The translations under genes were made by a program, and so were the position numbers. From an uncultured Gammaproteobacteria bacterium (GTDB lineage: Bacteria; Patescibacteriota; Microgenomatia; UBA8517), in the NCBI GenBank assembly GCA_964502815.1, contig CAZCXV010000005.1, positions 2,706 through 66,705 of the forward strand: a stretch of 64,000 nucleotides of DNA, in the 5' to 3' direction. How positions within the stretch are numbered: the stretch's first letter is position 1; every line of letters starts with the position of its first letter. The notes beneath the pieces were generated by a model that saw only the letters and a list, made by a program, of their open reading frames with translations, was not told the origin of the DNA and did no database searches. Shown here piece after piece: positions 15,401-63,051 of this stretch.

Positions 15401-18279
15401 ACATATACACCCTTTATAGCACTAATGGAGCCTGTATTGTTAACATTGGATGACTTTACATACAATCCTATATTGTTGCTCGAATAATTTGTGCCACCCC
15501 CTGAAAGCGTCATGTCTACTTCTGCGCCGGCAACAACACTACCAAGGTTTGCTGTAGGAGTGAAGGTTAAGGATGTATAAGAAGCAATACGGCCTGTGGC
15601 ATTGGAAGCACTATTCACTACGTGGAGGCCGTATGAAGGTGCTGTACCGCTTCCTAAGAAATATCCACTGTTGGTATAGATATCGCCATCAACAATTACA
15701 TCTGCGCCGGCTGGGTCTAAGGTTAAATCACCAGAGGCAGATAAAGTATTGCCTGAGAGATTTAAAGTGCCGGCAATGTCATGCGTACCTGCGCCGTTAA
15801 TGTCCAGGACTCCTGCTGCGGTCAGGTTGCCTGCATTGGAGAGGTTGAAGACGTCGGTGCCGTCGGATTGTTCGAAGACGGCCAGATCAGTGGTCTGGGT
15901 GGCATTGCCTTGGATAATGAACTGGATTTGGTCAGTGTCTCCATCAATACTGAGTTTGGCGCTTGAGAGAGGGGAGGATCCTCCTAAGATAACTTCATTG
16001 GTAGTGGTGGTGAGGTAGGTATTGGTGGTGGATGTAGTCCAGGGAGCACCGGCTCCTCCAGTAACATCAATCCAGGCCAAAGTACCTGTAGCATTACTGG
16101 ACAAGACTTGATTAGCTGAAGAAGCATCAGCAAGAGGAAGAACGTAAATGACATTTCCTGCCAATGAGTCAGGAGCTTTAAATCCAGTATAGTGGTCGCC
16201 ATTGGCTTCCAGTTCTTCAAAATCAATTTCACCTGTTGTGCCAGCGGTGGTGTTGTAGGGGTTTAGATGTAATCCAGAGGCTGAGATATCCATCCAAAGA
16301 GGTGAGTCGGAAGTGGTGCTACCAAGAGAAAAGTCATCGGTAGTGGAGGTGAGGTAAGTGATGTCACCTCCATCAGTCCATTGAGAACCAGCCCCTGCCG
16401 AGACATTAATCCAAGAGAGGACCCCGGCTCCACTACTGGCAAGGACTTGGTTACTGACGGTGGCATCAGCTGAAGGGAGTGTGTAGACAATGTTGGCAAT
16501 AAGAGAGTCAGGGGCTTTCAGGCCGGTGTAGTGGTCACCATTGGCTTCCAACTCCTCAAATCTTGCCTCACCAGTATTGCCAGCACTGGCGCCATGAGGA
16601 TTGAGGGAAAGGGCAGAAGCAGAGGTATCAAAGAAGAGAGGTGAGTCAGAAGTGGTGCCACCAACAGATAGATCATCCGCAGTTGCAGTTAAGTATGTAA
16701 TTGTTCCTCCATCAGTCCAAAGAGAACCTCCAGCAGCTGCAACATCAACCCAGGCAGATCCATTATACATCATCAACTTGTTGTCGTCAGAGTCCCAGGC
16801 GACGTAGCCTTCTCCTGTTGAAGGAGCTGTAAAAGAGGTGGCCTGTGGAAGTTTAATGCCTTCGGCCGATGTAGTGTTGTGAGTGATAGTAGAAAGGTCA
16901 AGGAGTAAGTCACTACCGGCAACAATATTGCCACTGCTGTTAAAGGTAACGAAAGCAGTTCCATTGTCTTGAATAACAAAGTCTCCACTACTAGATAAGT
17001 TGAAGGTAGTGTTACTGGAGCCTGAGTTAGTTAGAGTTAAAAGACCAGTATTCCCAACGGCAAAGATATCGGTGCCGTCGGATTGTTCAAGAACTAAAAG
17101 ACTTTCTGTTTGCGTACTGTTGCCTTGGATCTGAAGCTGGATGATGTCCGATGAGCCATCAATCATTAGTTGGGAAGTTCCAGCAGTTACAGAACCCAAG
17201 GTCATTTTGGATGAAGAAAGGATGTCACTTCCGCCAACGACTAAAGTTAAGTCTCCAGTAGTCGTGAAGGTAGTTGTGGCTCCATCAAAGGCAATGTCAG
17301 TATCGGCAATCAAAACTTCAGAATTGATATCCAGAGTTCCAGCAATAGTTAGAGTATTACCACTTTCATAAGTGTCTGTTGCATTAGAACGTAGGAAAGC
17401 TGTGGAATCTAGTCCGTCAATTTTATCGACGTCCAAACTTGAATCTAGATCAGTAAGGGCTTTCCATGAAGGAGCTAGAGCACCATTGCTGACAAAAATT
17501 TGATTGGCTGTGCCAACAGCAGACACTTGCATTCCAGTGGCTGTAGAGTAGGCAATTCCTCCTTCAGCCAGAGTTAACCCGTCTAAGTAATTAAGTTCAG
17601 AGGCAGTGCTGGTAAGAGAGGTACCGTTAATTACTAGGGAATTAATAGTTGCAGATCCAGTTGCAGTCAAATCCCCAGTAGTTAATTCATTAACAGTTAA
17701 GCCATTCAAAAAACTGACGGCTGCCCTAAATACACTTTCTACATTTACTCCAAATGTCGGGTTTTCCAGAGCTTCTGCAGCCAAGACTTGGGATTTTCTG
17801 CCTTTATTCGCCATAATCTCACTTATGTTACTACTATTAGTAAACATCTGAGACAAAATTGGAATATCGAAGGTATTTGATATAGTTTGTAGGTTTTTGA
17901 TAGCTATTGGAAAAAATGTTTTTGTCAACATTAATCCCGCCAGAAGCCAGATAAAAAACATGATTCCAGCTTTTACTATTGTCTTTCTTTCTTTTGATAG
18001 ATCGTCGTACAGGTTTGGATAATTAGTGATTTGAACTAGCTCTACTTCTCGAGCTTTAATCTCTGGTGTAATAACTGTCTTCTCACTTTGTTTTGGCCGG
18101 TGTTTTTGAACTAAACTTTCAAGGATATGAAGATCATACCTCCTATGACCACCTTTAGTTCTCTTAGAAGGAAGGATGCCCTTTTTTTCCCACCTCCTGA
18201 GAGTGTCTTTTGAAACACACAAGACTTTGCTTGCTTCCTCAATTGTCAGATATCTTTTGTCTTTTTTGGGCAGATCCAT
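12448..18279 (-). CDS. Giant (1943 aa) membrane protein: cytoplasmic excisionase/MerR-type HTH, one TM helix, extracellular parallel beta-helix / fibre region
   Basis: N-terminus YLTIEEASKVLCVSKDTLRRWEKKGILPSKRTKGGHRRYD matches the HTH_17 excisionase family. TM IMFFIWLLAGLMLTKTFFPIAI. PbH1-like repeats (NNHFEQNTYGQYGIIATANSIVVANNTYEGG...). C-terminal coiled coil and beta-rich domain. Confidence 0.75.
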   Translation of the reverse strand: MDLPKKDKRYLTIEEASKVLCVSKDTLRRWEKKGILPSKRTKGGHRRYDLHILESLVQKHRPKQSEKTVITPEIKAREVELVQITNYPNLYDDLSKERKTIVKAGIMFFIWLLAGLMLTKTFFPIAIKNLQTISNTFDIPILSQMFTNSSNISEIMANKGRKSQVLAAEALENPTFGVNVESVFRAAVSFLNGLTVNELTTGDLTATGSATINSLVINGTSLTSTASELNYLDGLTLAEGGIAYSTATGMQVSAVGTANQIFVSNGALAPSWKALTDLDSSLDVDKIDGLDSTAFLRSNATDTYESGNTLTIAGTLDINSEVLIADTDIAFDGATTTFTTTGDLTLVVGGSDILSSSKMTLGSVTAGTSQLMIDGSSDIIQLQIQGNSTQTESLLVLEQSDGTDIFAVGNTGLLTLTNSGSSNTTFNLSSSGDFVIQDNGTAFVTFNSSGNIVAGSDLLLDLSTITHNTTSAEGIKLPQATSFTAPSTGEGYVAWDSDDNKLMMYNGSAWVDVAAAGGSLWTDGGTITYLTATADDLSVGGTTSDSPLFFDTSASALSLNPHGASAGNTGEARFEELEANGDHYTGLKAPDSLIANIVYTLPSADATVSNQVLASSGAGVLSWINVSAGAGSQWTDGGDITYLTSTTDDFSLGSTTSDSPLWMDISASGLHLNPYNTTAGTTGEIDFEELEANGDHYTGFKAPDSLAGNVIYVLPLADASSANQVLSSNATGTLAWIDVTGGAGAPWTTSTTNTYLTTTTNEVILGGSSPLSSAKLSIDGDTDQIQFIIQGNATQTTDLAVFEQSDGTDVFNLSNAGNLTAAGVLDINGAGTHDIAGTLNLSGNTLSASGDLTLDPAGADVIVDGDIYTNSGYFLGSGTAPSYGLHVVNSASNATGRIASYTSLTFTPTANLGSVVAGAEVDMTLSGGGTNYSSNNIGLYVKSSNVNNTGSISAIKGVYVESGALSAATTGSLSTLSGVASGIDWRSSATAATVYGFYTDVEANSGTFTNTYGVYIGDLTAGTQTNTPYSFYASDASTYNYFSGNTSIGGDITPDYLLELNTAASSDPTFAMTDDDVAHGVTTLANTDAFFHLAPISSTVGGARLTAFADADGQALEIKAVQTTPTDTTPAIKLVGALASGTGVIDLEAADTVFAVANNDNSNALYILGDGTVYAPELNKVITVDGTVYAQTCTGINAAIDALGANGGEVYLPEGTYTCTESITIDANNTTIRGAGKGSKIVASAWASWGTPGHIINLNGKDYLTFSDFQVDATAQNGGGNSYQIMIGAGAIQSVFRNLYFTGGDEYGIQLTTSSQYNTITGSTFLNQDYAGIAFASSSHYNSVENNHFEQNTYGQYGIIATANSIVVANNTYEGGINSFVFSQGNYNSITGNTITNPGSAQGAIALWTASYNSVTGNTIVDDGTGGKGINVVTNSDSNIINGNSISGFSGAGDIGINIAASTEADNVISFNQLESNTTDISDVGTNTTIINSEDGNTVIGGADGTPDTTLELFRASGSDSTFSMTDGDVAHGVTTLANTDAFLHVGAISSTDGGVQLTALADNVNTAQALSLRGILGNTPDDTVPAIKLVGAKGSGTGIVDLAAAETVFQIANNDDAATLTTYGDGSVVVGAPTGGAKGIGTLNAVAVYDDNVLLTDYVFDKYFDGNVRQEDIDLHGDYSMMTLDEMGVYVNQNRHLPTIAGRDEWRKNGKFSLGSLASQLWETAETNSLYILELNNKINNLDTQDNTDLMKDITNLKDKDIELSTKISELETKIALLESQQQILGTATQSGEIQSASASASLTGLTTLNDVVVTGKLNVGAIQISSLDSSIDAIGTLKIQPLALGDVEIMGNLLKVDTKGNLNIQKGQIIGNPTFRGSEILPAGQTSVRINKTWETKPVSVSITPSYNTNVWLTNRDETGFTINVATAPLEDTVIDWIAIW
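16045..16725 (-). repeat. Two tandem ~113-aa (339-nt) repeats inside the giant gene
   Basis: Repeated units WTDGG(T/D)ITYLT...SDSPL...EELEANGDHYTG(L/F)KAPDSL...VLP.ADA...NQVL. A second duplicated ~110-aa module (TDxDVAHGVTTLANTDAF...AIKLVGA..GTG) flanks the beta-helix core at ~14745-15132 and ~13420-13765. Confidence 0.7.
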
Positions 18280-40035: not shown

Positions 40036-40082
40036 CTAAAGGCGTTTGACTTTTACAGAATGTTATATTATCCTGTACAGTA

Positions 40083-40583
40083 ATGACCCAGATAAGCAAA
40101 CTAAATCTACTTTTGAAATCAGGTAGGAAGTTGTTCCACACTCAGGATTTAGCGGTTTTGTGGGCAATGGAAAACAGAAACTCACTTTATACTGTCATTA
40201 AGAGAATGGTAAAGAGGGGTATTTTACTTCCTGTCATAAAAGGTCTTTACTCAACCGTCCCACTTAATGAAATCAATAAATACCAATTGGGAACTGCCCT
40301 AATTCACAAATATTGTTATGTGAGTTTGGAAACTGTTCTTTTCAATGAGGGAATAATTCATCAAAAGATTTATCCGATAACTTTCGTGTCTTCTGTTTCT
40401 CAAAAAGTTGAACATGATGGTGTACTGTATATCTACAGAAAGATGAAGCCCGAGTTATTTTTTTCTCCAGATGGAATTGAAGAAAAAGATGGTTATTTTA
40501 TTGCAAGCCGTGATCGGGCTATTTCTGATATTTTGTATTTTAACCCTAAATACTATTTTGACAGTCTTGAAGAAGACAAATAA
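40083..40583 (+). CDS. AbiEi-family antitoxin / transcriptional regulator (type IV TA)
   Basis: N-terminal winged HTH with AbiEi_4 hallmarks (LAVLWAMENRNSLYTVIKRMVKRG...YVSLETVLFNEGII), upstream of an NTase partner. Confidence 0.7.
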   Translation: MTQISKLNLLLKSGRKLFHTQDLAVLWAMENRNSLYTVIKRMVKRGILLPVIKGLYSTVPLNEINKYQLGTALIHKYCYVSLETVLFNEGIIHQKIYPITFVSSVSQKVEHDGVLYIYRKMKPELFFSPDGIEEKDGYFIASRDRAISDILYFNPKYYFDSLEEDK

Positions 40584-40586
40584 AAA

Positions 40587-41324
40587 ATGATAACAGCGAA
40601 AAAAGAAGACCGTCTACATGAATTCCAGCTCATAAAACTTTTGACCGGAGTTTGTGACAATGAGATTCTTGCCCAAAACCTTTTTTTTAAGGGTGGTACT
40701 TGTGCTGCCTTGGCTGGATATTTGGATAGATTTTCAGTTGATTTGGATTTTGATTTGAGTCCAAAGGCAAACAAAGCAAAAGTAAGAGGAGAGTTGGAAA
40801 AAGTTTTTAAAGGGTTAGATTTTACAATTGAAAACAATAATCAGAAAACACTCTATTTCACCCTGAAATATAAATCCCCCGGTATTCAAAGAAATACACT
40901 TAAGCTGAGTGTCTTTGAAGAGATAGTTGAATCAAATGACTACAAACCAATATATTTGGCGCAAATTGAGAGACTAGTTAACTGTCAGGTTATTGAAACA
41001 ATGTTTGCTAATAAGTTGGTCACTCCTGTAGATCGATACCAAAAACATAAAAAGGTGGCCGGAAGAGATATATATGACATCTATTATTTTTTCTTCCAGG
41101 GGTATGATTTCAAAAAGGAAATTATTGAAGAGAGGACTGGATTAAATACTTCTGATTATCTTGATAAACTAATAAGTTTTATAGAAGAACGAGTAACTGA
41201 AGACATTTTAACCAGAGATCTAAATCTCCTTTTGCCATATGAAAAATTCAAAATAATAAGGAAGACACTAAAGAATGATGTTTTAATGCTTTTAAAAGGT
41301 TTTGGTCGGAGTGGGCAGAATTGA
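40587..41324 (+). CDS. AbiEii/AbiGii-family nucleotidyltransferase toxin (DUF1814)
   Basis: NTase motif FKGGTCAALAGYLDRFSVDLDFDL (hG[GS]...DhD). 4-nt gap after the AbiEi gene; the 3' end overlaps tRNA-Pro. Confidence 0.7.
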   Translation: MITAKKEDRLHEFQLIKLLTGVCDNEILAQNLFFKGGTCAALAGYLDRFSVDLDFDLSPKANKAKVRGELEKVFKGLDFTIENNNQKTLYFTLKYKSPGIQRNTLKLSVFEEIVESNDYKPIYLAQIERLVNCQVIETMFANKLVTPVDRYQKHKKVAGRDIYDIYYFFFQGYDFKKEIIEERTGLNTSDYLDKLISFIEERVTEDILTRDLNLLLPYEKFKIIRKTLKNDVLMLLKGFGRSGQN

Positions 41325-41377
41325 ACTGCCTGCTTCTGCTTCCCGAAAGCAGCGGTCTACCGATGACCTACACTCCG
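41303..41377 (-). tRNA. tRNA-Pro (anticodon CGG), CCA encoded
   Basis: Manual fold: acceptor CGGAGTG/CACTCCG, D arm GGTC-ATCGGTA-GACC, anticodon stem CTGCT/AGCAG with loop TTCGGGA, T arm GGCAG-TTCAATT-CTGCC, discriminator A then CCA. Confidence 0.85.
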
Positions 41378-41399: not shown

Positions 41400-42089
41400 A
41401 TGACAGGAAATTTATATATAGTGGCCACCCCAATTGGAAATCTTCAGGATATGACTCTTAGAGCGATAGAAACTTTGAAGTCAGTTGAGCTCGTTATTGC
41501 TGAGGATACCAGAAAAACCAGTATTCTTTTGAGGCATTACGAAATAGATGTATCTAGTTTGAGCTATCACCAGCAAAGCAGTGACGATAAAAGATTTGAA
41601 ATTTTAAAAAGACTTTTGGACGGTAAAAATGTTGCCTTGGTAACTGACGCTGGAACTCCAGGCGTCTCTGATCCAGGCAATGAATTGATTGCTTTTTTGC
41701 TGGAAAAAGAGCCAGACATCAAAATAATTCCCATTCCCGGTTCATCAAGTCTAACAGCAGCCTTGTCAGTGAGTGGCATGAATGTAAATAAATTTGCGTT
41801 TCTTGGTTTTTTGCCCAAGAAGGGGAGACAAAAGCTGTTTTTAAGCCTGATTGAACAAAAAAATCCGATTGTCTTTTTTGAATCACCCTACAGAATTATC
41901 AAGACTATAGACTGGCTGATTGAACTAATGGGAGAAGACAAGGAAGTATTTGTAGGCCAAGAGTTAACCAAATTGCACGAGAGAATACTGAGAGGAAATT
42001 TGAAAAATGTAAAAGAGAAACTAGAAGAAGAACAAAAAACTCCTGCAGGCAGAGTTAGGGGAGAGATTGTGGTTATTTTGTCTTCTTAG
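41400..42089 (+). CDS. rsmI: 16S rRNA (cytidine1402-2'-O)-methyltransferase RsmI
   Basis: Tetrapyrrole-methylase-fold motifs LYIVATPIGNLQDMTLRA, LIAEDTR, GTPGVSDPG. Confidence 0.88.
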   Translation: MTGNLYIVATPIGNLQDMTLRAIETLKSVELVIAEDTRKTSILLRHYEIDVSSLSYHQQSSDDKRFEILKRLLDGKNVALVTDAGTPGVSDPGNELIAFLLEKEPDIKIIPIPGSSSLTAALSVSGMNVNKFAFLGFLPKKGRQKLFLSLIEQKNPIVFFESPYRIIKTIDWLIELMGEDKEVFVGQELTKLHERILRGNLKNVKEKLEEEQKTPAGRVRGEIVVILSS

Positions 42090-42357
42090 TATAAACTTCT
42101 TTGTGTGTACCAATCTGAAGGAATCTGACCTGGTTGTTTCCTCTTTTTTCGTAAATGATTCTAATATCATTTGTAATACTGAATGCCCATTTTCCTCTAA
42201 GGCGTCTTTTTAGGGAATGATTTCTTAATCTTGTGTCTTCTGGTTTGTTCACAAAGAGTTTAATCTTGGAGTCTATCGTTTCTCTCAATTCCGGTTGTGA
42301 CAAGATGAGTTTGATGTATTGCTTATTAAAACTACCTGTTGTTTTTCCTTTTGGCAT
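42073..42357 (-). CDS. RelE/ParE-family type II toxin
   Basis: 94 aa; RLRGKWAFSITNDIRIIYEKRGNNQVRFLQIGTHKEVY matches the RelE/ParE core; lies downstream of and overlapping an RHH antitoxin gene. Confidence 0.7.
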   Translation of the reverse strand: MPKGKTTGSFNKQYIKLILSQPELRETIDSKIKLFVNKPEDTRLRNHSLKRRLRGKWAFSITNDIRIIYEKRGNNQVRFLQIGTHKEVYTKKTK

Positions 42358-42619
42358 AGGCAGTAGGATTTTTGAAGTAACTCAATATATCCTCTTTTGT
42401 TTCCAAAATAATATCGTTTTCCTCAGGTTCTTTAGCTGCTCTTAAGATTTCATCTTCAAATTCCTTAGTAAAGCCATTAACAGTCAACTCGGGATACAAT
42501 CTTTTTCTTAAAGACTCCCTAATTAGTTCACTGACTGAGGAATAACTGTATTTTTTGACGGCTGTCTTAGCTTCTTCGTATAAATCCTTTGGTAGAGATA
42601 TGTTTATAGTCATATTCAT
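42332..42619 (-). CDS. Ribbon-helix-helix (CopG/ParD-like) antitoxin
   Basis: MTINISLPKDLYEEAKTAVKKYSYSSVSELIRESLRKRL is a classic RHH beta-strand plus two helices. The ORF call begins at TTG 42640; an internal ATG is preferred. Confidence 0.65.
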   Translation of the reverse strand: MNMTINISLPKDLYEEAKTAVKKYSYSSVSELIRESLRKRLYPELTVNGFTKEFEDEILRAAKEPEENDIILETKEDILSYFKNPTAYAKRKNNR

Positions 42620-42636
42620 ACAATCATTGTATGATA

Positions 42637-43752
42637 TCAATACAAAGAAGTCAAATGTTGTACTCGGAGCTTTTCCATCAAAATGGAATAGAATCTTAAG
42701 TTGTGAATGGTTGCAAGTCGGCTAGCTGTAAAGTCTTCTATTCTAAAAAGATGAGCCAAGTAGCTTCTGGTGTAGTGGGTGCACAGGAGGCAATCACAAG
42801 CCGTAGAAACAGGACTTAGGTCATGATAATATCTTTCTTTGTCTGGAACAAAGTAAGAGTAGAAATTGGGACTTCTGACATCTATTTCTGCAACTGACTT
42901 TGCGCTATAAACATACAGCCTTTTATGTCTGGCGTCCCTGGTTGGAAGAACACAGTCAAAAATGTGGTAGCCCATGTCAACCAGCTTAACTATTTCATCC
43001 GGCTTGCCAATTCCCAGGCCATACAAGAGATAATCTTTGGGGGCGTTGTCCTTAATGGTTTTAGCAGATTGATAGTCAAAAGTTTTATTATCCAATATTG
43101 GCCAGCCTCCGTAGCCCAAGCCGTCAAAGCCTATCTTTACAAGTTCTTGTGTACAGTAAGATCTTAAGTCTTGATATATTCCTCCTTGGACAACTCCAAG
43201 TAAATATGGTTTTTCGTTCTCCTTCCATCTCTTTTCTTTGACAATCTTTTCAAATTCTGTCTTACACCTTTTTGCCCAGAGCAAAGTTCTTTCTACTGTT
43301 TCGCGGGCTAAGTCATAAGTTGCATTAGGAGGAGTAAAATCATCCAAAACTACCACCATATCAGTACCAAGGGTCATTTGAAAATCAATTGAATCTTCTG
43401 GAGTAAGCTTTACCTTTGGATGCCCCGGAACTTGGAAAGAAGCTCCTTCATCACTAATTTTGCCTTTGTTGCCAGGAGATTTGGCCAGGCTCATGACCTG
43501 AAAACCTCCAGAGTCAGAAATTACTCCACCAGAGAAGTTCATGAACTTTCTAATGCCACCATGCTCCTTAATTACTTTTTTGCCAAGGTCTTTAAAGAGG
43601 TGATAAGTGTTGACCAAAATCCCTTGAGTTTTAGTGTTTGTAATATCAACCGAGTCGAGTGTTTTAAGTACTGCCCTGGTTGCATCGGGAAAAAATATGG
43701 GCAGAGAAATATTCCCTGCAGTCTCGGTCTTAAAGTATTTGGGACTATTCAC
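42637..43752 (-). CDS. tgt: Queuine tRNA-ribosyltransferase (tRNA-guanine transglycosylase)
   Basis: TIM-barrel motifs (DSGGFQV), zinc site CDCLLCTHYTRSYLAHLF (CxCxxC...H). Confidence 0.9.
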   Translation of the reverse strand: MNSPKYFKTETAGNISLPIFFPDATRAVLKTLDSVDITNTKTQGILVNTYHLFKDLGKKVIKEHGGIRKFMNFSGGVISDSGGFQVMSLAKSPGNKGKISDEGASFQVPGHPKVKLTPEDSIDFQMTLGTDMVVVLDDFTPPNATYDLARETVERTLLWAKRCKTEFEKIVKEKRWKENEKPYLLGVVQGGIYQDLRSYCTQELVKIGFDGLGYGGWPILDNKTFDYQSAKTIKDNAPKDYLLYGLGIGKPDEIVKLVDMGYHIFDCVLPTRDARHKRLYVYSAKSVAEIDVRSPNFYSYFVPDKERYYHDLSPVSTACDCLLCTHYTRSYLAHLFRIEDFTASRLATIHNLRFYSILMEKLRVQHLTSLY

Positions 43753-45871: not shown

Positions 45872-45875
45872 TTTG

Positions 45876-45947
45876 TGTTCCCGCCGAGAATCGAACTCAG
45901 ATTTAAGGTTTAGGAAACCTTTGTTCTATCCGTTGAACTACGGGAAC
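45876..45947 (-). tRNA. tRNA-Arg (anticodon CCT), no encoded CCA
   Basis: Manual fold: acceptor GTTCCCG/CGGGAAC, D arm GTTC-AACGGATA-GAAC, anticodon stem AAGGT/ACCTT with loop TTCCTAA, T arm CTGAG-TTCGATT-CTCGG, discriminator A. Confidence 0.85.
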
Positions 45948-51475: not shown

Positions 51476-51625
51476 TCTCCTGATACTAAAATTGCTATTT
51501 TGATATATTGCTAAGTATTTTGATATATATAATTGAGCGTTTAGTTTGAATCTTGACTTTTGGGCAAAATATGTCAAAATGAGATCTGGAACTGACGAAA
51601 TTCGATAGGTTCAGACGTTAAATCA

Positions 51626-52195
51626 ATGAATCCAATAGCCAAACTATATCAGTCTTCGAAAACGGTCTTTACGAATAAAGATTTAGCTGTAATTTGGGAG
51701 GAAAATGACCCTTCAAGATTGTGGTCAAAAACATATCGTTATTTAAAAAAGGGGTTGTTGACTAGGTTAGCAAGAGGGGTATATGTAAAGAATAAAGATT
51801 ATGACCCCTTGGAATTGGCAACGAGTCTTTATTTACCCTCATACATTAGTTTTGAAACAATTTTCAGACAAGTTGGATTTGTATTCCAGTATTATGAAAC
51901 CATATTTGTGGCAAGCAATATTTCAAAAACTGTGATTGTTGATGACAAAAAAATTATCTTTAGAAGGTTAAAAGATGAAATTTTGTACAGTCCTGAAGGG
52001 ATAGTAAAAGAAGGGAACTATAATATTGCTTCTCCTGAAAGGGCATTTCTGGACATGTTGTACTTGGCGCCTAATTATTATTTTGATAATTTAAATCTGC
52101 TTAATTGGGAAAACTGCTTTGAACTTGTAAACGTATATAATAATAAACAATTAGTCAAAAGACTAAAAACCTATCAAAAAGATTATGCTAAATAA
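51626..52195 (+). CDS. AbiEi-family antitoxin (second module)
   Basis: Homologous to 40083..40583 (LAVIWEEND...SYISFETIFRQVGFV). Confidence 0.7.
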   Translation: MNPIAKLYQSSKTVFTNKDLAVIWEENDPSRLWSKTYRYLKKGLLTRLARGVYVKNKDYDPLELATSLYLPSYISFETIFRQVGFVFQYYETIFVASNISKTVIVDDKKIIFRRLKDEILYSPEGIVKEGNYNIASPERAFLDMLYLAPNYYFDNLNLLNWENCFELVNVYNNKQLVKRLKTYQKDYAK

Positions 52196-52895
52196 AGCAC
52201 AACACAGACGGATAATGGGTCAGATATTGAAGGATATCTTTTCTGACATTTTTCTTGCACCAATTATGGGGTTCAAAGGTGGGACTTGTGCCGCCTTTTT
52301 CTATGATCTGTCCAGACCATCGGTCGATTTAGATTTTGATTTGTTTAAAGTTGATGAAGGGACTCAAAAAATAGTCTTTGAAAAAATCTTAAAAATTGCA
52401 CAGAATTATGGCAAAATTAAAAATAGCTATATAAAATACCATACCATTTTTATTTTACTTTCTTATGGAGAAAAAGATCACAACATAAAAATTGAAACTA
52501 ATACCAGGCTCGATCCTGCAAACTCTAAAGATTACTTTGTGCCTAAGGAATATCTTGGAATTACCATACTTGTTCCGGTCAAAAATTATATGTTTGCCAA
52601 TAAGCTTGTAGCTTTGACAACTCGCTTGAGGGTAGTAAATCGCGACATCTATGATATCTGGTATTTTGCCAAAAGTAATTGGGATATTGACGTTGAAATA
52701 ATCAAACATAAGACTGGCAAGGATCTTTCAAGCTATCTCAATGATTGCATCCAGGTGATTGAAAAAGTAAAAGACAATGAAATATTGCAAGGACTAGGTG
52801 AGCTTTTAGATGAGAAAGAAAAAATCTGGGTCAAAAGTCATCTGCGTAAAGAAGCGATTTTCCAATTAAAAAACTACCTTGCAGCATTGAAATAA
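52185..52895 (+). CDS. AbiEii/AbiGii nucleotidyltransferase toxin (second module)
   Basis: FKGGTCAAFFYDLSRPSVDLDFDL NTase motif; 11-nt overlap with the upstream AbiEi gene (translational coupling). Confidence 0.7.
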   Translation: MLNKAQHRRIMGQILKDIFSDIFLAPIMGFKGGTCAAFFYDLSRPSVDLDFDLFKVDEGTQKIVFEKILKIAQNYGKIKNSYIKYHTIFILLSYGEKDHNIKIETNTRLDPANSKDYFVPKEYLGITILVPVKNYMFANKLVALTTRLRVVNRDIYDIWYFAKSNWDIDVEIIKHKTGKDLSSYLNDCIQVIEKVKDNEILQGLGELLDEKEKIWVKSHLRKEAIFQLKNYLAALK

Positions 52896-52952: not shown

Positions 52953-54233
52953 ATGGTGCAAGACAACATAATTCTTCCTAAAAACACTAAAGTTCCCTCT
53001 CATATTGCCCTTGTTCTAGATGGTAACAGAAGATGGGCCAGATCCAGGGGGTTGGCACCTACAGAAGGTCATAAGGCAGGCTACAGAGCTGTCCTGGAAG
53101 TTTCCAAAGCCGCAAGAGACCTCGGAGTGCATACATTCACAGCTTGGGCCTTGTCAACTGAAAACTGGCGGGAAAGACCAGAGAGAGAAGCTAAGGTCAT
53201 TTTTCATTTGGCTAAAAAGGCCTTGAAACTAATAGCCAAGGATGCCAAAAGAGAAGGAGTGAGGTTTATTCATCTTGGCAGAAAAGATAGGTTGCCAAAA
53301 GAAATAATCGCTGAAATCATTAAGCTCGAAAAGGCAACAGACCACTATACTAAGCATGTTTTTAACCTGGCTTTAGATTATGGTGGAAGAGATGAAATAG
53401 TCAGAGCGGTGCAAAAAATTGTTGATGATCAGATTCCATCAGAAAAAATCGACGACAAACTTTTTGAGAAATATTTAGATACCGGAGATCAGCCGTATCC
53501 ATATGTTGATTTATTCATTAGAACCTCAGGCGAACAGAGAACATCTGGCCTCATGCCCTGGCAAAACGATTATGCCGAGTATTACTGGGAGGAAGGCCAC
53601 TTGCCGGATTTTACTCCTGAAAAATTAAAAGCTGCTATTCTTGATTATTCCAGACGCAGGAGAAGATTTGGAGGAAATGATGCCGTGGAGCATTTTACTT
53701 TCAAACCCGAGCTTGCAGCTAAACTTGAAATAAACTGGTGGAGGCTTCGAAATATTCCTCAGGGAGTCAGCTTTACGCAGTATGCAGTTAAACACTTAAA
53801 AGAACAATATGGCCTCTCTAAAGAACTGGCGGGAAAAGCTGCTAAATATATGCTTCTGGCAGTCAAGGATGGGGATGCCAATAAGTGGGGTAAGGCAGGA
53901 ATAAACCTAAAAAGGTTTTATAAACTGATAAAAGAAGAATTAAAAATAGCCTTTGAGCCAAAACTGGTTGCTTCTTTAGAAATAAAGCTTTGGCAGGATC
54001 TTAAAAACAAAGATTCTGTTAAAAGCGCAGCTGTTGCAGAGGAGTCCGCAAGGCAGCTGTATGCCGAAAGTTATAGAATTTCTCTTTTTCAGGCTGCAAA
54101 ATTAGCTCACTTGAGGGTTCTTGCAAATATAGAGCGAAATATGGCTGAAAAAGGCATGGGAGAAGATCATTGGGATAGGGCAGAAGATTACCTCCACAAG
54201 TTTTACAGTGAACTCAAGAACAGAGTAGCTTGA
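52953..54233 (+). CDS. uppS: Undecaprenyl pyrophosphate synthase with ~180-aa C-terminal extension
   Basis: HIALVLDGNRRWA, TAWALSTENWRERP, RTSGEQR cis-prenyltransferase motifs; 426 aa against ~250 aa typical. Confidence 0.8.
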   Translation: MVQDNIILPKNTKVPSHIALVLDGNRRWARSRGLAPTEGHKAGYRAVLEVSKAARDLGVHTFTAWALSTENWRERPEREAKVIFHLAKKALKLIAKDAKREGVRFIHLGRKDRLPKEIIAEIIKLEKATDHYTKHVFNLALDYGGRDEIVRAVQKIVDDQIPSEKIDDKLFEKYLDTGDQPYPYVDLFIRTSGEQRTSGLMPWQNDYAEYYWEEGHLPDFTPEKLKAAILDYSRRRRRFGGNDAVEHFTFKPELAAKLEINWWRLRNIPQGVSFTQYAVKHLKEQYGLSKELAGKAAKYMLLAVKDGDANKWGKAGINLKRFYKLIKEELKIAFEPKLVASLEIKLWQDLKNKDSVKSAAVAEESARQLYAESYRISLFQAAKLAHLRVLANIERNMAEKGMGEDHWDRAEDYLHKFYSELKNRVA

Positions 54234-58785: not shown

Positions 58786-61700
58786 TTGGTTAAGAATCTG
58801 CCCGGATCGCTTGAAGAAGAGAACAAAAAATTGGTACAGATCAGTAAAGCTGCTCTGATTTTAGGTGTCTCTATTGATACTTTGAGACGTTGGGATAAAA
58901 AAGGTATCTTAAAAGCAGTCAAATCTAAAGGTAAACGTTTCTATTTACTTGAAGAACTTGAAAAGTTTGGTAAAGAGAAAACAAAATCTTCTACCTATGC
59001 AAATACATATGCAAATGAGCCTGAAAAAACAGAAAAACTAGATTGGCAAGTTTTTCAATGGTTGAGTAGTGCAGTTGAATCAGTTAAAAAGGCTCAAGTC
59101 AGGCTTTTGTCTTTCAATAAAATTATAAGGTTTTCAGTTTTAATACCCTTGGTACTATTTCTGGTTGTCATTTTTCTTGTCTCTTTTCTATTTTTACTCA
59201 AGCCCCGGGCAACTACAGAGTTTTTTAATTATAAATTAAAATCTCAAATAGTTAATGAGAAAGGGGAAACTGCAGCAGTTTTGGCGGCACAAACCTCAAG
59301 TGAAGCAATTTCAAGCCAAAATATCATTGCAAATTATCTTCAAGGACCAGCTAATATATCGGTGAAGATACTGCGAACTATTGGAAATGAGCAAGCTACA
59401 GAAATTGTTCTACCATCTGAAGAACTTGATCAGATTAGGCAGCGGCTGGGAATTGTTGGAGAAGGGGATATAAGTCCAAACGGTAGTTTAGTTCTTAGAG
59501 ACATTTCTCAGATTAAGATTGGAAACGAAGACTTGTTGACTAGATTAAATACTGAGTTTTCCAAAACACCAGACCAAAATACAACTATCGAGACTAGAAT
59601 TGGGGAAATAAAATCTGATTCAAATCGGCTTAGCGTTAACTCCTTGGACGGAGTGTCCGTTTTTAGTCTTGATTTAGCAGGTATACTTGCCGATATTTCA
59701 GCAGATTCTGTTAAAAGTGAGAATATCAAAGATGGAGAAGTTAAAAATTCCGATCTTTCCCAAATTACCGATACAAATAAAGTAGCTGGATCTGCAGTTC
59801 AACTTTCTTCAACTGGAGGACTAATAAACAGTTCTGGTCTTTCATTATCTATTTCTTGCTCTTCAAATCAAATTCTTGTCTGGGATGGTGATTCTTGGGA
59901 ATGTGGTACTCAAACTGGTGGAGGCGGTGGGTCTTATTTAGCTGGTAATGATTTAGACATAACGGGGACGACTTTTGATATAGAAGCAACTTTAGATAGT
60001 GTATCTACTGTCAACTTTTTAGGAACTGGGACAATAAATGGACTTGATTTAATTGATGACACATCAGAATCAACAATTGAAAGTTCTATTGATACGCTGG
60101 CAAATCTTACTTCTGCCTCCTCTTTAGTTACAGTTGGAACATTGACAGGTGGGGCTACTGGGTCTGGTTTTACACTGAATTTTGGTTCTTCTACCTTATC
60201 AGGCAATATTACAGGTACAAATATATCGGGAATTGATATTTCAGATGATACAAATTTATCAGCAACAAGTGGAATAAGTTTAACGGGAGATCAATTAACG
60301 GCCACTTTAGGAACAACAATTGCCAATTCTGAGATTGATATCGATACAATTAATTTTGATAGGCTCGATTCAAGCCTGACTTTAGATGAAGCAACAACAA
60401 TCTCATCAGGATCCGCTCTTGGATTTAGTATTGGCAACAATGTAACTTTTGCAGTAACCGGAACAGGTCAAATAATTGCAACAGACTTATCATGTAGTGA
60501 TTGTATTGGTTCAACAGAAATATCGGGATTGACTTGGTCAGAGATTTCTTCCACCCCAACCACTCTCTCTGGTTATGGAATTACTGATGGATTATCAACT
60601 TCAATAATTCAAACAGCAGATGGATATTTTGGCGATATCTATCTCAAAGATGATACCTCTCCATCTCACTATCTGCAAATCACCAATGCCCAGAATCTAA
60701 CTGCAGCCCACGTTCTTTCTATTTCAACATCAGATGCGGACCGTACACTGACCATTTCTGCCAATTCAACTATCTCTGGAACAAATACAGGAGATCAGAC
60801 GATAACCCTTACAGGAGATGTAACAGGAAGTGGAACAGGAAGTTTTGCAGCAACTATTGAAAATGACAAGATTTTAGAAGTGCATTTAAAGGCAGTTGAT
60901 GGGGCAACAGATGAAGAATGCCTAACTTATGAATCAACCGTCGGAGATTTTGAATGGCAAAGCTGTGGAGCTGGAGGATCAACAACTTGGGATGCAATTG
61001 GTGATCCTACTCTTGGGGGAGCTATTGCCATGGCTGAGACTACTCAAACAATGGACTGGAACAGTAATGACGTTACAGCCCTTGCAGTTGATGGTTTAAC
61101 GCTTACCTATACTAATGATGCGGCAACTGACATTTTAAACCAAAATCTTTTGACCTTGGCAAATGTCAACACTTCTGGGTCTAGTACTACTGAAGCTTTG
61201 TTGGTGATTGACAACAGAGATACTAATGAAGCAGTTACCGCTGGTATTCGGATCATTTCTGCAGCAGGTGGGATAACAAAGGGAGTTGATTTTGACGATA
61301 CCGATATTGTAACCGACATTGAATTTCAAAATGACGAAACAATGGATAATAATACTAACGGCCAGCTTACCTTCACCGGTGTAGGTCAGACAAATAATGG
61401 CACATTGACACTTGATTTAGAAACAAATAGCATACCAACCTTAACATCTTCAACAGATACTGCAATAGGAATAGACGAAGATCTGCAGTTTATTGGAGCG
61501 CAAACTATAAGTACTTCAACTGGAAACCTAACAATTGATTCTGGAGCAAACACTATTTTAGCAGATGCAACAATCCAGCTTTCAAATGCAGGTTTTGCGT
61601 CTTGTTCTACTTTAGCGACAGATTCTTCCGGAAACCTTACTTGTAGTGGTATTGGAGATACTGCTTCTTTTAGCGATACAACGCCTGCAGCTATTGCAGA

Positions 61701-63051
61701 TAATGATACAACCGAACTTTTTAACGATGCGACCAGACCAAATATCACGCCAAACTCTACGGGTTCAACCATACTTATCACTGTTCACGACCGGTTTACT
61801 GGGGGTGGAAATACCGATACTGACGCTGCAGTGCAGATCTACCGTAAAGTTGGTGGTAATCCAACTTGTGGCACAGACACTTTGGTTGGAGACAATTTCA
61901 GCGCTTTTCTGACCAACGGAACTGACATCAATGATGCGACAGGTACATTTCTAGATTCACCAGCGACTACAAGCAATGTCTTTTATACTGTTTGTTCAAG
62001 TTCCAATTCTACTCTCGGAAGCGCCCCAACTAATAATAGGATTGATGTGACTCTTATTGAATTGGGAGCAGATTTGGCAGAGAATTACTTTACTTCTGAT
62101 GAATCAATAGTTCCAGGTGACATCGTTTCCTTGGATCCAAGGTCGCCTTCCTGGGTGAAAAAATCAAATAAGGCCTATGATTCCAACGCCGTTGGAATCG
62201 TATCGACAGTGCCAGCTTTGACTCTTTCAAATGCAGTTGGAATATCGGGCAAAAATGTAGTTCCTGTAGCCTTGGCAGGGAGAGTTCCAGTTAAGGTTTC
62301 TACTGAAAATGGTCGAGTGAAAGCTGGAGACTTTCTAACGACGTCTTCTATACCTGGTGTTGCCATGAAAGCGACCAAGTCGGGTCAAATTATCGGCCAA
62401 GCTCTTCAGGATTTTGGCTATCAAGACCAAGAAATTGGTTTACTTGTCGTTTTTGTCAAAACTGGATATACAAATGGATCGAGATCTTTGAGTACGCTTC
62501 CAAGCGGGGAAAACAGCACGCAGGTCAATTATGAATTGTCAGAAATTGTCACAGACAGACTATTTGCGGATGAACAAATTTCTACAAACAGTTTGAAGAT
62601 CGGTGAAGGTTTAAACATTTCTTCTGGAGGGCTAGTAACTGGCGAAGTTTCTTTTGAAAATTTAGTTAGATTACTGGGAGAGGTAGAGTTTTTAGCAACT
62701 CCGTACTTTAATTCTGATACTGCGGGATTTGCGACTATTAGACAGGGTGCAAAAGCGGTTGAAGTAAAATTCGAAAAAGAGTATACAAATCTGCCCGTTG
62801 TTGTTGCGTCTGCCGACCGCCAGATTCTTTACTCTATAGTAAATGCAACTACCAGAGGGTTTGAAATTCAAATAGCTGACAGCGCCCAAGAAGATATAAA
62901 ATTCAACTGGATTGTCTTGGCTGTCAAAAATCCAAAGATATTTGTAAGTTTGAATGAAGCGGAAAACATTCCAGCGGCTTCACCAATTCCTTCGGTTGAT
63001 AGCGAAAAAAATGATGAGGCAACTAGCTCCGCGCAAGTACTAGTAAATTAA
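58786..63051 (+). CDS. Giant (1421 aa) membrane protein: N-terminal excisionase/MerR-type HTH, TM, extracellular beta-rich fibre/adhesin region
   Basis: LVQISKAALILGVSIDTLRRWDKKGILKAVKSKGKRFY HTH_17. TM VLIPLVLFLVVIFLVSFLFLL. C-terminal ~55-aa module homologous to the C-terminus of 12448..18279. TTG start. Confidence 0.7.
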   Translation: MVKNLPGSLEEENKKLVQISKAALILGVSIDTLRRWDKKGILKAVKSKGKRFYLLEELEKFGKEKTKSSTYANTYANEPEKTEKLDWQVFQWLSSAVESVKKAQVRLLSFNKIIRFSVLIPLVLFLVVIFLVSFLFLLKPRATTEFFNYKLKSQIVNEKGETAAVLAAQTSSEAISSQNIIANYLQGPANISVKILRTIGNEQATEIVLPSEELDQIRQRLGIVGEGDISPNGSLVLRDISQIKIGNEDLLTRLNTEFSKTPDQNTTIETRIGEIKSDSNRLSVNSLDGVSVFSLDLAGILADISADSVKSENIKDGEVKNSDLSQITDTNKVAGSAVQLSSTGGLINSSGLSLSISCSSNQILVWDGDSWECGTQTGGGGGSYLAGNDLDITGTTFDIEATLDSVSTVNFLGTGTINGLDLIDDTSESTIESSIDTLANLTSASSLVTVGTLTGGATGSGFTLNFGSSTLSGNITGTNISGIDISDDTNLSATSGISLTGDQLTATLGTTIANSEIDIDTINFDRLDSSLTLDEATTISSGSALGFSIGNNVTFAVTGTGQIIATDLSCSDCIGSTEISGLTWSEISSTPTTLSGYGITDGLSTSIIQTADGYFGDIYLKDDTSPSHYLQITNAQNLTAAHVLSISTSDADRTLTISANSTISGTNTGDQTITLTGDVTGSGTGSFAATIENDKILEVHLKAVDGATDEECLTYESTVGDFEWQSCGAGGSTTWDAIGDPTLGGAIAMAETTQTMDWNSNDVTALAVDGLTLTYTNDAATDILNQNLLTLANVNTSGSSTTEALLVIDNRDTNEAVTAGIRIISAAGGITKGVDFDDTDIVTDIEFQNDETMDNNTNGQLTFTGVGQTNNGTLTLDLETNSIPTLTSSTDTAIGIDEDLQFIGAQTISTSTGNLTIDSGANTILADATIQLSNAGFASCSTLATDSSGNLTCSGIGDTASFSDTTPAAIADNDTTELFNDATRPNITPNSTGSTILITVHDRFTGGGNTDTDAAVQIYRKVGGNPTCGTDTLVGDNFSAFLTNGTDINDATGTFLDSPATTSNVFYTVCSSSNSTLGSAPTNNRIDVTLIELGADLAENYFTSDESIVPGDIVSLDPRSPSWVKKSNKAYDSNAVGIVSTVPALTLSNAVGISGKNVVPVALAGRVPVKVSTENGRVKAGDFLTTSSIPGVAMKATKSGQIIGQALQDFGYQDQEIGLLVVFVKTGYTNGSRSLSTLPSGENSTQVNYELSEIVTDRLFADEQISTNSLKIGEGLNISSGGLVTGEVSFENLVRLLGEVEFLATPYFNSDTAGFATIRQGAKAVEVKFEKEYTNLPVVVASADRQILYSIVNATTRGFEIQIADSAQEDIKFNWIVLAVKNPKIFVSLNEAENIPAASPIPSVDSEKNDEATSSAQVLVN

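Follow-up and report, generated by a model that had tools for sequence, protein, structure and literature searches.

Do two gene pairs on a 64-kb stretch of contig CAZCXV010000005.1, each annotated as an AbiE toxin-antitoxin (TA) module, encode genuine and intact systems, and what does their placement among housekeeping genes say about their history and role? Throughout, the window is this whole analysed stretch of 64,000 nucleotides, and pair 1 (AbiEi-1 and AbiEii-1) and pair 2 (AbiEi-2 and AbiEii-2) each comprise the gene for an AbiEi-like antitoxin and that for an AbiEii nucleotidyltransferase (NTase) toxin. We found both pairs to be genuine, intact AbiE cassettes that are ordinary for these bacteria, the mildly notable feature being the deep positional conservation of pair 1 together with its housekeeping-like evolutionary rate. 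Taken as a whole, it is highly probable that both loci are intact, self-contained AbiE TA cassettes of groundwater Microgenomates-type Patescibacteria, with the role, control and histories proposed below.

Both toxins belong to the AbiEii family

The Pfam profile PF08843, which the initial annotation had named as a check on the toxins, recovered both of them above its gathering cutoff of 22.5 bits (AbiEii-1, 60.7 bits; AbiEii-2, 63.5 bits). The PADLOC AbiEii model PDLC02324 likewise matched AbiEii-1 (E=1.5e-24, 85 bits) and AbiEii-2 (E=8e-67, 223 bits). The DLDFD motif that had been read from the translations is present as RFSVDLDFD at residues 48-56 of AbiEii-1 and as RPSVDLDFD at residues 44-52 of AbiEii-2, with KGG ahead of each. 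We aligned 38 toxins from both subfamilies and found ten invariant residues in this region (K35, G36, G37, R48, S50, D52, L53, D54, F55 and D56 in AbiEii-1 numbering) as well as F140, K143, R150, R160, D161 and D164 further along the protein. The catalytic aspartates are thus present in both window toxins and invariant across the alignment. Motif III of AbiEii-1 reads F140-A-N-K143...R150 and motif IV reads R160-D161-I-Y-D164; the AbiEii-2 equivalents of the conserved positions are K31-G-G33, R44-x-S46-x-D48-x-D50-x-D52, FANKL...R and R153-D154-x-x-D157. The invariant positions coincide with the NTase motifs known from AbiEii and MenT toxins, namely the GG...[ST]xDxD metal-binding core, K...R (motif III) and RDxxD (motif IV), whose roles have been described previously (PMC11375011). 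All four open reading frames (ORFs) of the two pairs are full length relative to their homologues.

Searched against PDB chains, a profile of the 38-toxin alignment matched Helicobacter pylori JHP933 (4o8s/4ok0; E=2e-15) and 6y56 (E=0.002), in alignments that include the RFSxDLDF segment. Structure models cover AbiEi-1 and AbiEii-1, AbiEii-2 being placed through its 32 % identity to AbiEii-1. The AlphaFold model of AbiEii-1 had a predicted local distance difference test score (pLDDT) of 91.4 and a predicted template-modelling score (pTM) of 0.86, and its Foldseek matches were 4o8s (JHP933; E=8e-8, TM 0.56), 6j7s (MenT3/TglT; E=3e-6) and 8an4 (MenT1; E=1e-3). JHP933 is therefore the closest solved structure both by sequence profile and by fold, and at 232 aa it is of similar size to the window toxins; it is described as a putative NTase only, with no characterised cognate antitoxin in the sources consulted.

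The antitoxins match the PADLOC AbiEi profile, and AbiEi-1 also matches by fold

The AbiEi profile set considered here comprised COG5340, PF13338/PF17194/PF11459 and NF047376, along with the PADLOC AbiEi model PDLC02255. The last of these matched both antitoxins near full length (AbiEi-1, E=9e-30, 102 bits; AbiEi-2, E=4e-55, 184 bits). Scores against Pfam AbiEi_4 were 15.4 bits (AbiEi-1) and 19.4 bits (AbiEi-2), both under the cutoff of 25, and those against NCBIfam TAA_AbiEi were 54 and 34 bits, respectively, with the cutoff of 150 missed by both. The profile test that the initial annotation had proposed for AbiEi therefore gave a divided answer, strong for PADLOC and joined by a fold match, but below threshold for Pfam PF13338 and NCBIfam. 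A divided answer also holds for the YxSxE[ST]xL signature it had assigned to both antitoxins, which is found in AbiEi-1 (YVSLETVL) but not in AbiEi-2 (YISFETIF), which ends in F instead of L.

The AlphaFold model of AbiEi-1 (pLDDT 92.2, pTM 0.82) retrieved from the PDB a sole entry at E<=0.001, namely the two chains of 6y8q, the Streptococcus agalactiae AbiEi (prob 1.0, TM 0.59/0.52, 165 aligned columns), and shares with it the architecture of a winged helix-turn-helix (wHTH) followed by a C-terminal antitoxicity domain. When AbiEi-2 and an AbiEi profile were compared with PDB chains by sequence, no AbiEi structure was recovered, so that the link from these antitoxins to a solved structure was made by fold comparison alone. 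AbiEi-1 also has a conserved loop after the helix at residues 83-88 (E89-G90-I-I92-H-Q94), in which G90 and Q94 are invariant. Since family matches were recovered and the catalytic aspartates are kept, the assignment of both pairs to AbiEi/AbiEii is correct.

Gene arrangement in the window

An ORF check of the window placed both pairs on the plus strand just where the initial annotation had them, and a six-frame profile scan of the 64 kb returned exactly two AbiEi and two AbiEii genes (Table 1). Both pairs have the operon arrangement of AbiE, with the antitoxin gene immediately 5' of a co-oriented toxin gene. The genes of pair 1 are separated by a 3-nt gap; the same gene junction in the related loci L007 and L047 is a 4-nt overlap. 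The neighbours were also as first described: pair 1 lies between atpC (ATP-synt_DE_N) and tRNA-Pro(CGG), beyond which is an rsmI-like TP_methylase gene, and pair 2 lies between a wecB/tagA gene, encoding a WecG/TagA-family glycosyltransferase, and uppS (Prenyltransf). Two very long ORFs are found elsewhere in the window, at 12448-18279 on the minus strand (1943 aa) and at 58786-63051 on the plus strand (1421 aa).

Table 1. Positions of the AbiE genes, the adjoining tRNA gene and the candidate control sequences in the window
Feature	Position	Strand	Description
AbiEi-1 antitoxin	40083..40583	+	166 aa; N-terminal winged HTH and C-terminal domain; short subfamily ending just after YYFD
AbiEii-1 DUF1814 nucleotidyltransferase toxin	40587..41324	+	245 aa; last 7 codons are the antisense of the tRNA-Pro 3' end
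AbiEi-2 antitoxin	51626..52195	+	189 aa; 11-nt overlap with AbiEii-2
AbiEii-2 DUF1814 nucleotidyltransferase toxin	52185..52895	+	236 aa
tRNA-Pro(CGG)	41303..41377	-	ARAGORN; convergent with the AbiEii-1 ORF
Pair 1 promoter/operator-like block	40046..40079	+	TTGACT 40046-40051, 17 nt, TATCCT 40069-40074; consensus scan
Pair 2 operator-like repeats	51496..51580	+	13-nt TATTTTGATATAT; repeat search and consensus scan

Proposed mechanism and type of control

By homology, free AbiEii would add nucleotides to tRNA 3' ends and thereby block aminoacylation and translation. MenT toxins add nucleotides to the tRNA 3'-CCA and prevent aminoacylation (PMC11375011; bioRxiv 10.64898/2026.01.19.700257), and S. 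agalactiae AbiEii modifies tRNAs in a pyrimidine-specific manner, with UTP favoured over CTP and an apparent preference for class II tRNAs. The winged HTH protein AbiEi may repress its own cassette promoter through its DNA-binding surface, and its C-terminal domain may bind the toxin and drive auto-phosphorylation of a serine (S50 in AbiEii-1, S46 in AbiEii-2), switching the toxin off. This putative phosphoacceptor lies two residues ahead of DxD, and control would then be type VII-style rather than type IV. Where neutralisation is lost, for example upon phage infection or stress, growth arrest would follow as abortive infection or dormancy.

The type IV label given to both modules in the initial annotation is being superseded. 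A 2026 preprint reports that binding of AbiEi causes AbiEii to auto-phosphorylate at T65, abolishing NTase activity, and moves AbiE out of type IV into type VII (bioRxiv 10.64898/2026.01.19.700257). The phosphoacceptor serine is kept in both window toxins, the R-x-S ahead of DxD being invariant in the family (R48-x-S50-x-D52-x-D54 in AbiEii-1 and R44-x-S46-x-D48-x-D50 in AbiEii-2). R48/S50 of AbiEii-1 have their counterpart in AbiEii R63/T65 (bioRxiv 10.64898/2026.01.19.700257), the spacing is that of MenT1 T39-x-D41-x-D43, and R76/S78 of MenT3 also match (PMC11375011). By analogy with these proteins, type VII control of both cassettes is likely but not certain.

The S. agalactiae and L. lactis AbiE systems share with the window pairs a two-gene operon in which a wHTH antitoxin gene lies upstream of, and is translationally coupled to, a PF08843 toxin gene, and their toxins keep R-x-[ST]-x-D-x-D, K...R and RDxxD. 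With S. agalactiae AbiEi (6y8q) the common ground extends to a match of the AbiEi-1 model over its full length. Repeat elements also lie at the putative promoter of pair 2. The systems differ in that the window phosphoacceptor is Ser rather than Thr, the toxins are of 236-245 aa, and the cassettes are chromosomal in a genome of the Candidate Phyla Radiation (CPR), pair 1 being clade-fixed; identity to 6y8q is about 15 %, and the window antitoxins have 166 and 189 aa compared to the 195-residue 6y8q chain. Among the Mycobacterium tuberculosis toxins, MenT3 (TglT, Rv1045) and MenT1 (Rv0078A) resemble AbiEii-1 in fold, and a Ser/Thr two residues before DxD is their antitoxin-induced auto-phosphorylation site (PMC11375011), with Ser at that spot here. 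MenT3 is larger, at 288 aa, and its partner MenA3 is a COG5340 AbiEi-like antitoxin, whereas MenA1 is unrelated to AbiEi.

Several points weigh against this picture. Both antitoxins are sub-threshold for the curated Pfam and NCBIfam AbiEi profiles, and the conserved loop of AbiEi-1 is a candidate counterpart only of the antitoxicity loop of S. agalactiae AbiEi (D85/E86/I87, alpha5-beta4). No phosphorylation is seen in MenT4, another toxin with a COG5340 partner (bioRxiv 10.64898/2026.01.19.700257), and so the conserved serine is no proof of type VII control. What is proposed here about toxicity, about modification of tRNAs, phosphorylation and binding to DNA, and about defence against phages is extrapolated from distant homologues at about 15-20 % identity and should be read as predicted properties of the window proteins. 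Moreover, S. agalactiae AbiE gave E. coli no protection against 32 coliphages. Conversely, phage resistance is conferred by L. lactis AbiE and by two related systems, SanaTA and RlegTA. Given these mixed results in homologues, a phage-defence role of the two cassettes may be proposed but is not assured.

History of pair 1 at the atpC/tRNA-Pro junction

The initial annotation took both pairs to be insertions into housekeeping neighbourhoods. Pair 1 does not fit this description, for it appears long-standing and occupies the same junction in two further divergent lineages, but pair 2 does look lineage-specific (see below). The comparison for pair 1 drew on the H41 lineage (L007, L039 and L040) and the more divergent L047/L048, with L003 representing the window's own population. 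The closest GTDB representative by AtpD, at 83 %, is the Patescibacteria metagenome-assembled genome (MAG) H41-bin046_1, which was the sole close relative obtained from the AtpD anchor. The gene order in the H41 lineage is atpD-atpC-AbiEi-AbiEii-tRNA-Pro(cgg)-extra wHTH/phosphoribosyltransferase (PRTase) gene-rsmI-YafQ-like TA-tgt, and that of L047/L048 is atpC-AbiEi-AbiEii-tRNA-Pro(cgg)-rsmI. The L047/L048 proteins are 62 % (RsmI), about 52-55 % (AtpC), 68 % (AbiEi) and 66 % (AbiEii) identical to those of the window.

Synonymous sites have reached saturation in the comparison of the window with L007 (proportion of synonymous differences, pS, 0.67-0.82). Because of this saturation the classical ratio of nonsynonymous to synonymous rates (dN/dS) is unusable for pair 1, and we compared the proportion of nonsynonymous differences (pN) with that of housekeeping neighbours in its place. 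The values for AbiEi-1 (0.19) and AbiEii-1 (0.23) are at the level of those for atpG (0.20), atpC (0.27), rsmI (0.165) and tgt (0.17). Combined with the saturated pS, this indicates that pair 1 has been kept intact, evidently under purifying selection, for as long as the lineages have diverged. A 23-member AbiEii clade holds AbiEii-1, and its other members are found in other contexts, such as a four-gene Woesebacteria array, which points to mobility of the AbiEii-1-type family as a whole over longer timescales.

We also considered a tRNA-targeted integrative element or integrase-mediated insertion as the origin of pair 1 and found no support for it. The 3' end of tRNA-Pro has no att-like duplicate in the window at up to 3 mismatches, the flanks of the cassette have no direct repeats beyond short chance-like matches, and no recombinase ORF lies between atpC and rsmI.

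This history bears on what the modules are selected for. It is possible, if doubtful, that these are real AbiE modules whose selected role is not phage defence, and that they act instead as chromosomally fixed growth or translation regulators in stress or dormancy, or persist as addictive selfish modules that the cell is unable to lose. Fixation of pair 1 at one housekeeping junction in three divergent lineages, with evolution at a housekeeping rate, is unusual for fast-turnover defence genes, and there is no mobile genetic element (MGE), integrase or att repeat near it. Both subfamilies are also nearly absent from viral contigs, a scan of 2.9 million of which gave 2 distant matches only (32 % identity); carriage of either subfamily by phages is thus unsupported. 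AbiE in aquifers is not enriched on MGEs or in defence islands (PMC12259885), and the failure of S. agalactiae AbiE against coliphages agrees with a role outside defence. These points are offset by the phage resistance that L. lactis AbiE, SanaTA and RlegTA do give and by the reportedly intense phage pressure on CPR in groundwater and their high defence density per Mb (PMC12259885), and post-segregational addiction alone would leave long-term purifying selection on a chromosomal toxin unexplained. A narrower version, which we regard as improbable, is that pair 1 has been domesticated and fixed in a Microgenomates-type CPR clade as a tRNA-modifying translation brake, rather than as a turnover-prone phage defence. 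We retain the reading of both loci as self-contained AbiE cassettes whose release would lead to abortive infection or dormancy.

Two other genes at this junction vary among the relatives. An extra 336-aa gene is present between tRNA-Pro and rsmI in L007 (13123-14133) and L039 (5873-6862), with weak matches to MarR-like wHTH and PRTase-CE/phosphoribosyltransferase families, and is absent from the window and L047. A third TA module lies at 42073-42640 on the minus strand of the window, about 0.7 kb from pair 1, and pairs a YafQ/ParE-family toxin (94 aa; PF15738, 38.8 bits) with a weak ribbon-helix-helix (RHH)-type antitoxin candidate (102 aa) that it overlaps. This YafQ-like TA is kept in the H41 lineage (L007 14819-15395) and absent after rsmI in L003 and L047.

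The overlap with tRNA-Pro

With the tRNA boundaries drawn by ARAGORN, the 22-nt overlap of the AbiEii-1 ORF (stop codon included) with the tRNA 3' end was reproduced. Rfam RF00005 places the tRNA at 41306..41377 (60.5 bits), three bases fewer, corresponding to the genome-encoded CCA, and the convergent overlap then measures 19 nt. The overlap that the initial annotation had reported thus exists, but it reflects a local indel and is no property of the cassette. The AbiEii ORF terminates short of the tRNA in the relatives, by 4 nt in L007 and by 1 nt in L047/L048; in the window and L003, an indel of about 9 nt deletes the stop codon used in L007, and the ORF reads through seven more codons (a GFGRSGQN-type tail) that are not conserved in the family. 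Since the relatives stop 1-4 nt before the tRNA and the indel is confined to the window's population, the overlap is best regarded as incidental and local to that population. The 3' CCA of tRNA-Pro is genome-encoded in the window (41303-41305), at the junction changed by the indel that fuses the AbiEii-1 ORF to the tRNA, and is not encoded in the L007 and L047 orthologues.

A functional meaning of the adjacency and overlap, whether through convergent transcription that would control tRNA-Pro or the toxin mRNA by antisense, or with tRNA-Pro as the toxin's target, is very improbable. It draws on the action of AbiEii/MenT toxins on tRNA 3' ends, on the retention of the atpC/tRNA-Pro junction in three lineages with ORF-tRNA spacings of only -22, +1 and +4 nt, and on the presence of a tRNA gene within about 1.2 kb of the AbiE pair in 5/8 independent contexts. 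However, the overlap itself occurs in the window and L003 only and stems from the indel, its tail is not conserved, and same-clade AbiEii genes in L041 and L049 lie in contexts without any tRNA. Moreover, gene proximity is uninformative about an enzyme's RNA substrate, and tRNA genes are general hotspots for accessory genes. We therefore keep to an incidental overlap.

The distances between AbiE and tRNA genes in the five contexts (L034, L038, L043, L045 and window pair 1) are 0 (overlapping), 87, 455, 918 and 1123 nt. Set against a rough chance expectation of about 12 %, and with a small sample and a post hoc threshold, they give a hint that tRNA flanks may be preferred sites of AbiE landing or retention. 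In two relatives, tRNA-Pro(cgg) adjoins tRNA-Arg(cct) beside PEGA-mreB-tagA (L033 1446-1598; the complete Woesebacteria genome CP011214, L043, 6641-6797), and in CP011214 the tRNA-Pro of this tRNA pair has an AbiE-1-type cassette about 0.9 kb away. In the window, tRNA-Pro and tRNA-Arg(cct) (45875-45947) are about 4.5 kb apart, with rsmI, the YafQ TA, tgt and others between them.

That tRNA-antisense codons have taken the place of the AbiEii-1 C-terminus also bears on whether one or both cassettes are decaying remnants, with non-functional toxins or orphaned regulators. The GC content of the AbiE genes (31-34 %, under the window mean of 38.7 %) and the AbiEi scores below the curated Pfam and NCBIfam cutoffs could be read in the same direction. 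On the other side are four full-length ORFs with every invariant catalytic residue kept, confident folds for both AbiEi-1 and AbiEii-1, and purifying selection on pair 1 comparable to that on housekeeping genes. In addition, identical AbiEii-1 occurs on 6 contigs and identical AbiEii-2 on 5, each from 5-6 samples (groundwater metagenomes from several studies). Decay is already largely refuted by these observations and has next to no credence left, and we treat both cassettes as intact.

Pair 2 between tagA and uppS

The window order around pair 2 is PEGA-mreB-tagA-AbiEi-2-AbiEii-2-uppS. L033 and the complete Woesebacteria genome CP011214 have PEGA(-)-mreB-tagA-polyprenyl synthase(-)-uppS, and relatives carry polyprenyl synthase or unrelated genes in the slot held by pair 2; none of seven relatives identified through UppS (56-71 % identity) has AbiE beside uppS. 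A polyprenyl synthase is encoded nowhere in the 64-kb window. Close homologues of pair 2 invariably form a two-gene unit with an 11-nt overlap in unrelated housekeeping contexts (tig/APH, glmS/cofD and rpsP-khpA/trmD), and the closest AbiEii-2 homologue among the matches listed is 65 % identical. Because the tagA-uppS slot of the relatives is without AbiE, pair 2 looks like a lineage-specific gain at this site, from a subfamily common in Parcubacteria-type CPR. It counts against this history that the comparison genomes are distant, at the UppS identities given above, and that the tagA-uppS junction of the H41 lineage is not among them.

The neighbouring UppS (window 52953-54233) is 426 aa long, with the Prenyltransf domain at residues 21-240 and a further 185 aa or so as a C-terminal extension. 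This segment has no Pfam match and is kept in all retrieved relatives (L027-L033, aligned to residue 426).

Promoter-like and operator-like sequences

Upstream of pair 1 we identified a conserved block, GTTATATTATCCTGTACA, at 40062-40079, ending 3 nt before the ATG. The arrangement TTGAC(A/T)-17 nt-TATCCT-GTACA is common to pair-1-type cassettes of the window, L003, L007, L041, L045 and L047; L043 keeps the TTGACA hexamer alone. As the block is kept across different genomic contexts and ends a few nt before the ATG, we infer a cassette-borne promoter/operator for pair 1, with an AbiEi-1 mRNA that is probably leaderless or nearly so. A repeat search found no clear inverted repeat in the pair 1 promoter region.

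Pair 2 has a different layout. The 13-nt TATTTTGATATAT occurs in direct copies at 51496-51508 and 51516-51528 and in an inverted copy at 51568-51580, and a promoter-like site consists of TTGACT (51553-51558), 16 nt and CAAAAT (51575-51580), with the inverted copy lying over the -10. AbiEi autoregulates abiE operons by binding promoter inverted repeats (bioRxiv 10.64898/2026.01.19.700257), and by this precedent AbiEi-2 may bind at the TATTTTGATATAT repeats. A hairpin in the 5' untranslated region between the pair 2 promoter and the start codon was considered and discarded, being no more stable than shuffled sequence (z = -0.30).

Two subfamilies and their abundance

Pairs 1 and 2 are 35 % identical in AbiEi (over 162 aa) and 32 % in AbiEii, and these values mark them as old paralogues from different subfamilies rather than a recent duplication. 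The AbiEii-1 subfamily has 4018 homologues at E<=1e-5, with named matches from Woesebacteria, Collierbacteria, Beckwithbacteria and Microgenomates; AbiEi-1 has 231 homologues, mostly unannotated or labelled 'hypothetical'. For AbiEii-2 there are 3328 homologues, the best 120 of which (minus the self-match) are 58-65 % identical and 230-270 aa long, mostly 236-237 aa. Named matches to AbiEii-2 are from Kuenen-, Magasanik-, Uhr-, Parcu- and Paceibacteria, with a few from Nitrospirota and Elusimicrobia, and are mostly Parcubacteria-type. PADLOC PDLC02255 and PDLC02324 are the best models for both window pairs, pair 2 matching near end to end, and both cassettes are already detectable by standard defence-finder pipelines. 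Pair 1 scores well below pair 2 in these models and represents a divergent Microgenomates-type branch.

AbiE has been cited as ranking fourth in abundance among prokaryotic defence systems (PMC11375011) and is among five 'first-line' families found in >10 % of aquifer bacterial MAGs (PMC12259885). An AbiEi-AbiEii pair is also on record in a patescibacterial epibiont. Four AbiEii genes are packed into about 6 kb on Woesebacteria-type contigs (L041 54-5726; L049 1054-6726; L050). The presence of two copies in 64 kb, which the initial annotation had called a notable investment for a reduced genome, is consequently not remarkable, given more than 3000 homologues per subfamily, a relative with four genes and a top-five rank among defence families in aquifers. 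In the Woesebacteria array, three of the AbiEii genes form a tandem on a single strand and the fourth is divergent, with a small partner ORF upstream of each; two array types differ downstream, where either a DegT aminotransferase or a GIY-YIG protein is encoded.

Implications

The practical value of these results is small, in that they confirm standard AbiE modules maintained in a reduced CPR genome. They also correct three over-readings, namely a recent insertion, a meaningful tRNA overlap and an unusual copy number. Curated AbiEi models could be extended with the Microgenomates-type subfamily, whose members are mostly labelled 'hypothetical' and fall below the Pfam and NCBIfam cutoffs. Were the improbable domestication of pair 1 to be true, the cassette would provide a built-in brake, for instance one engaged in dormancy while the episymbiont is not attached to its host. 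More generally, a TA cassette held at one housekeeping junction past synonymous saturation would be a clean example of long-term vertical retention in a streamlined genome.

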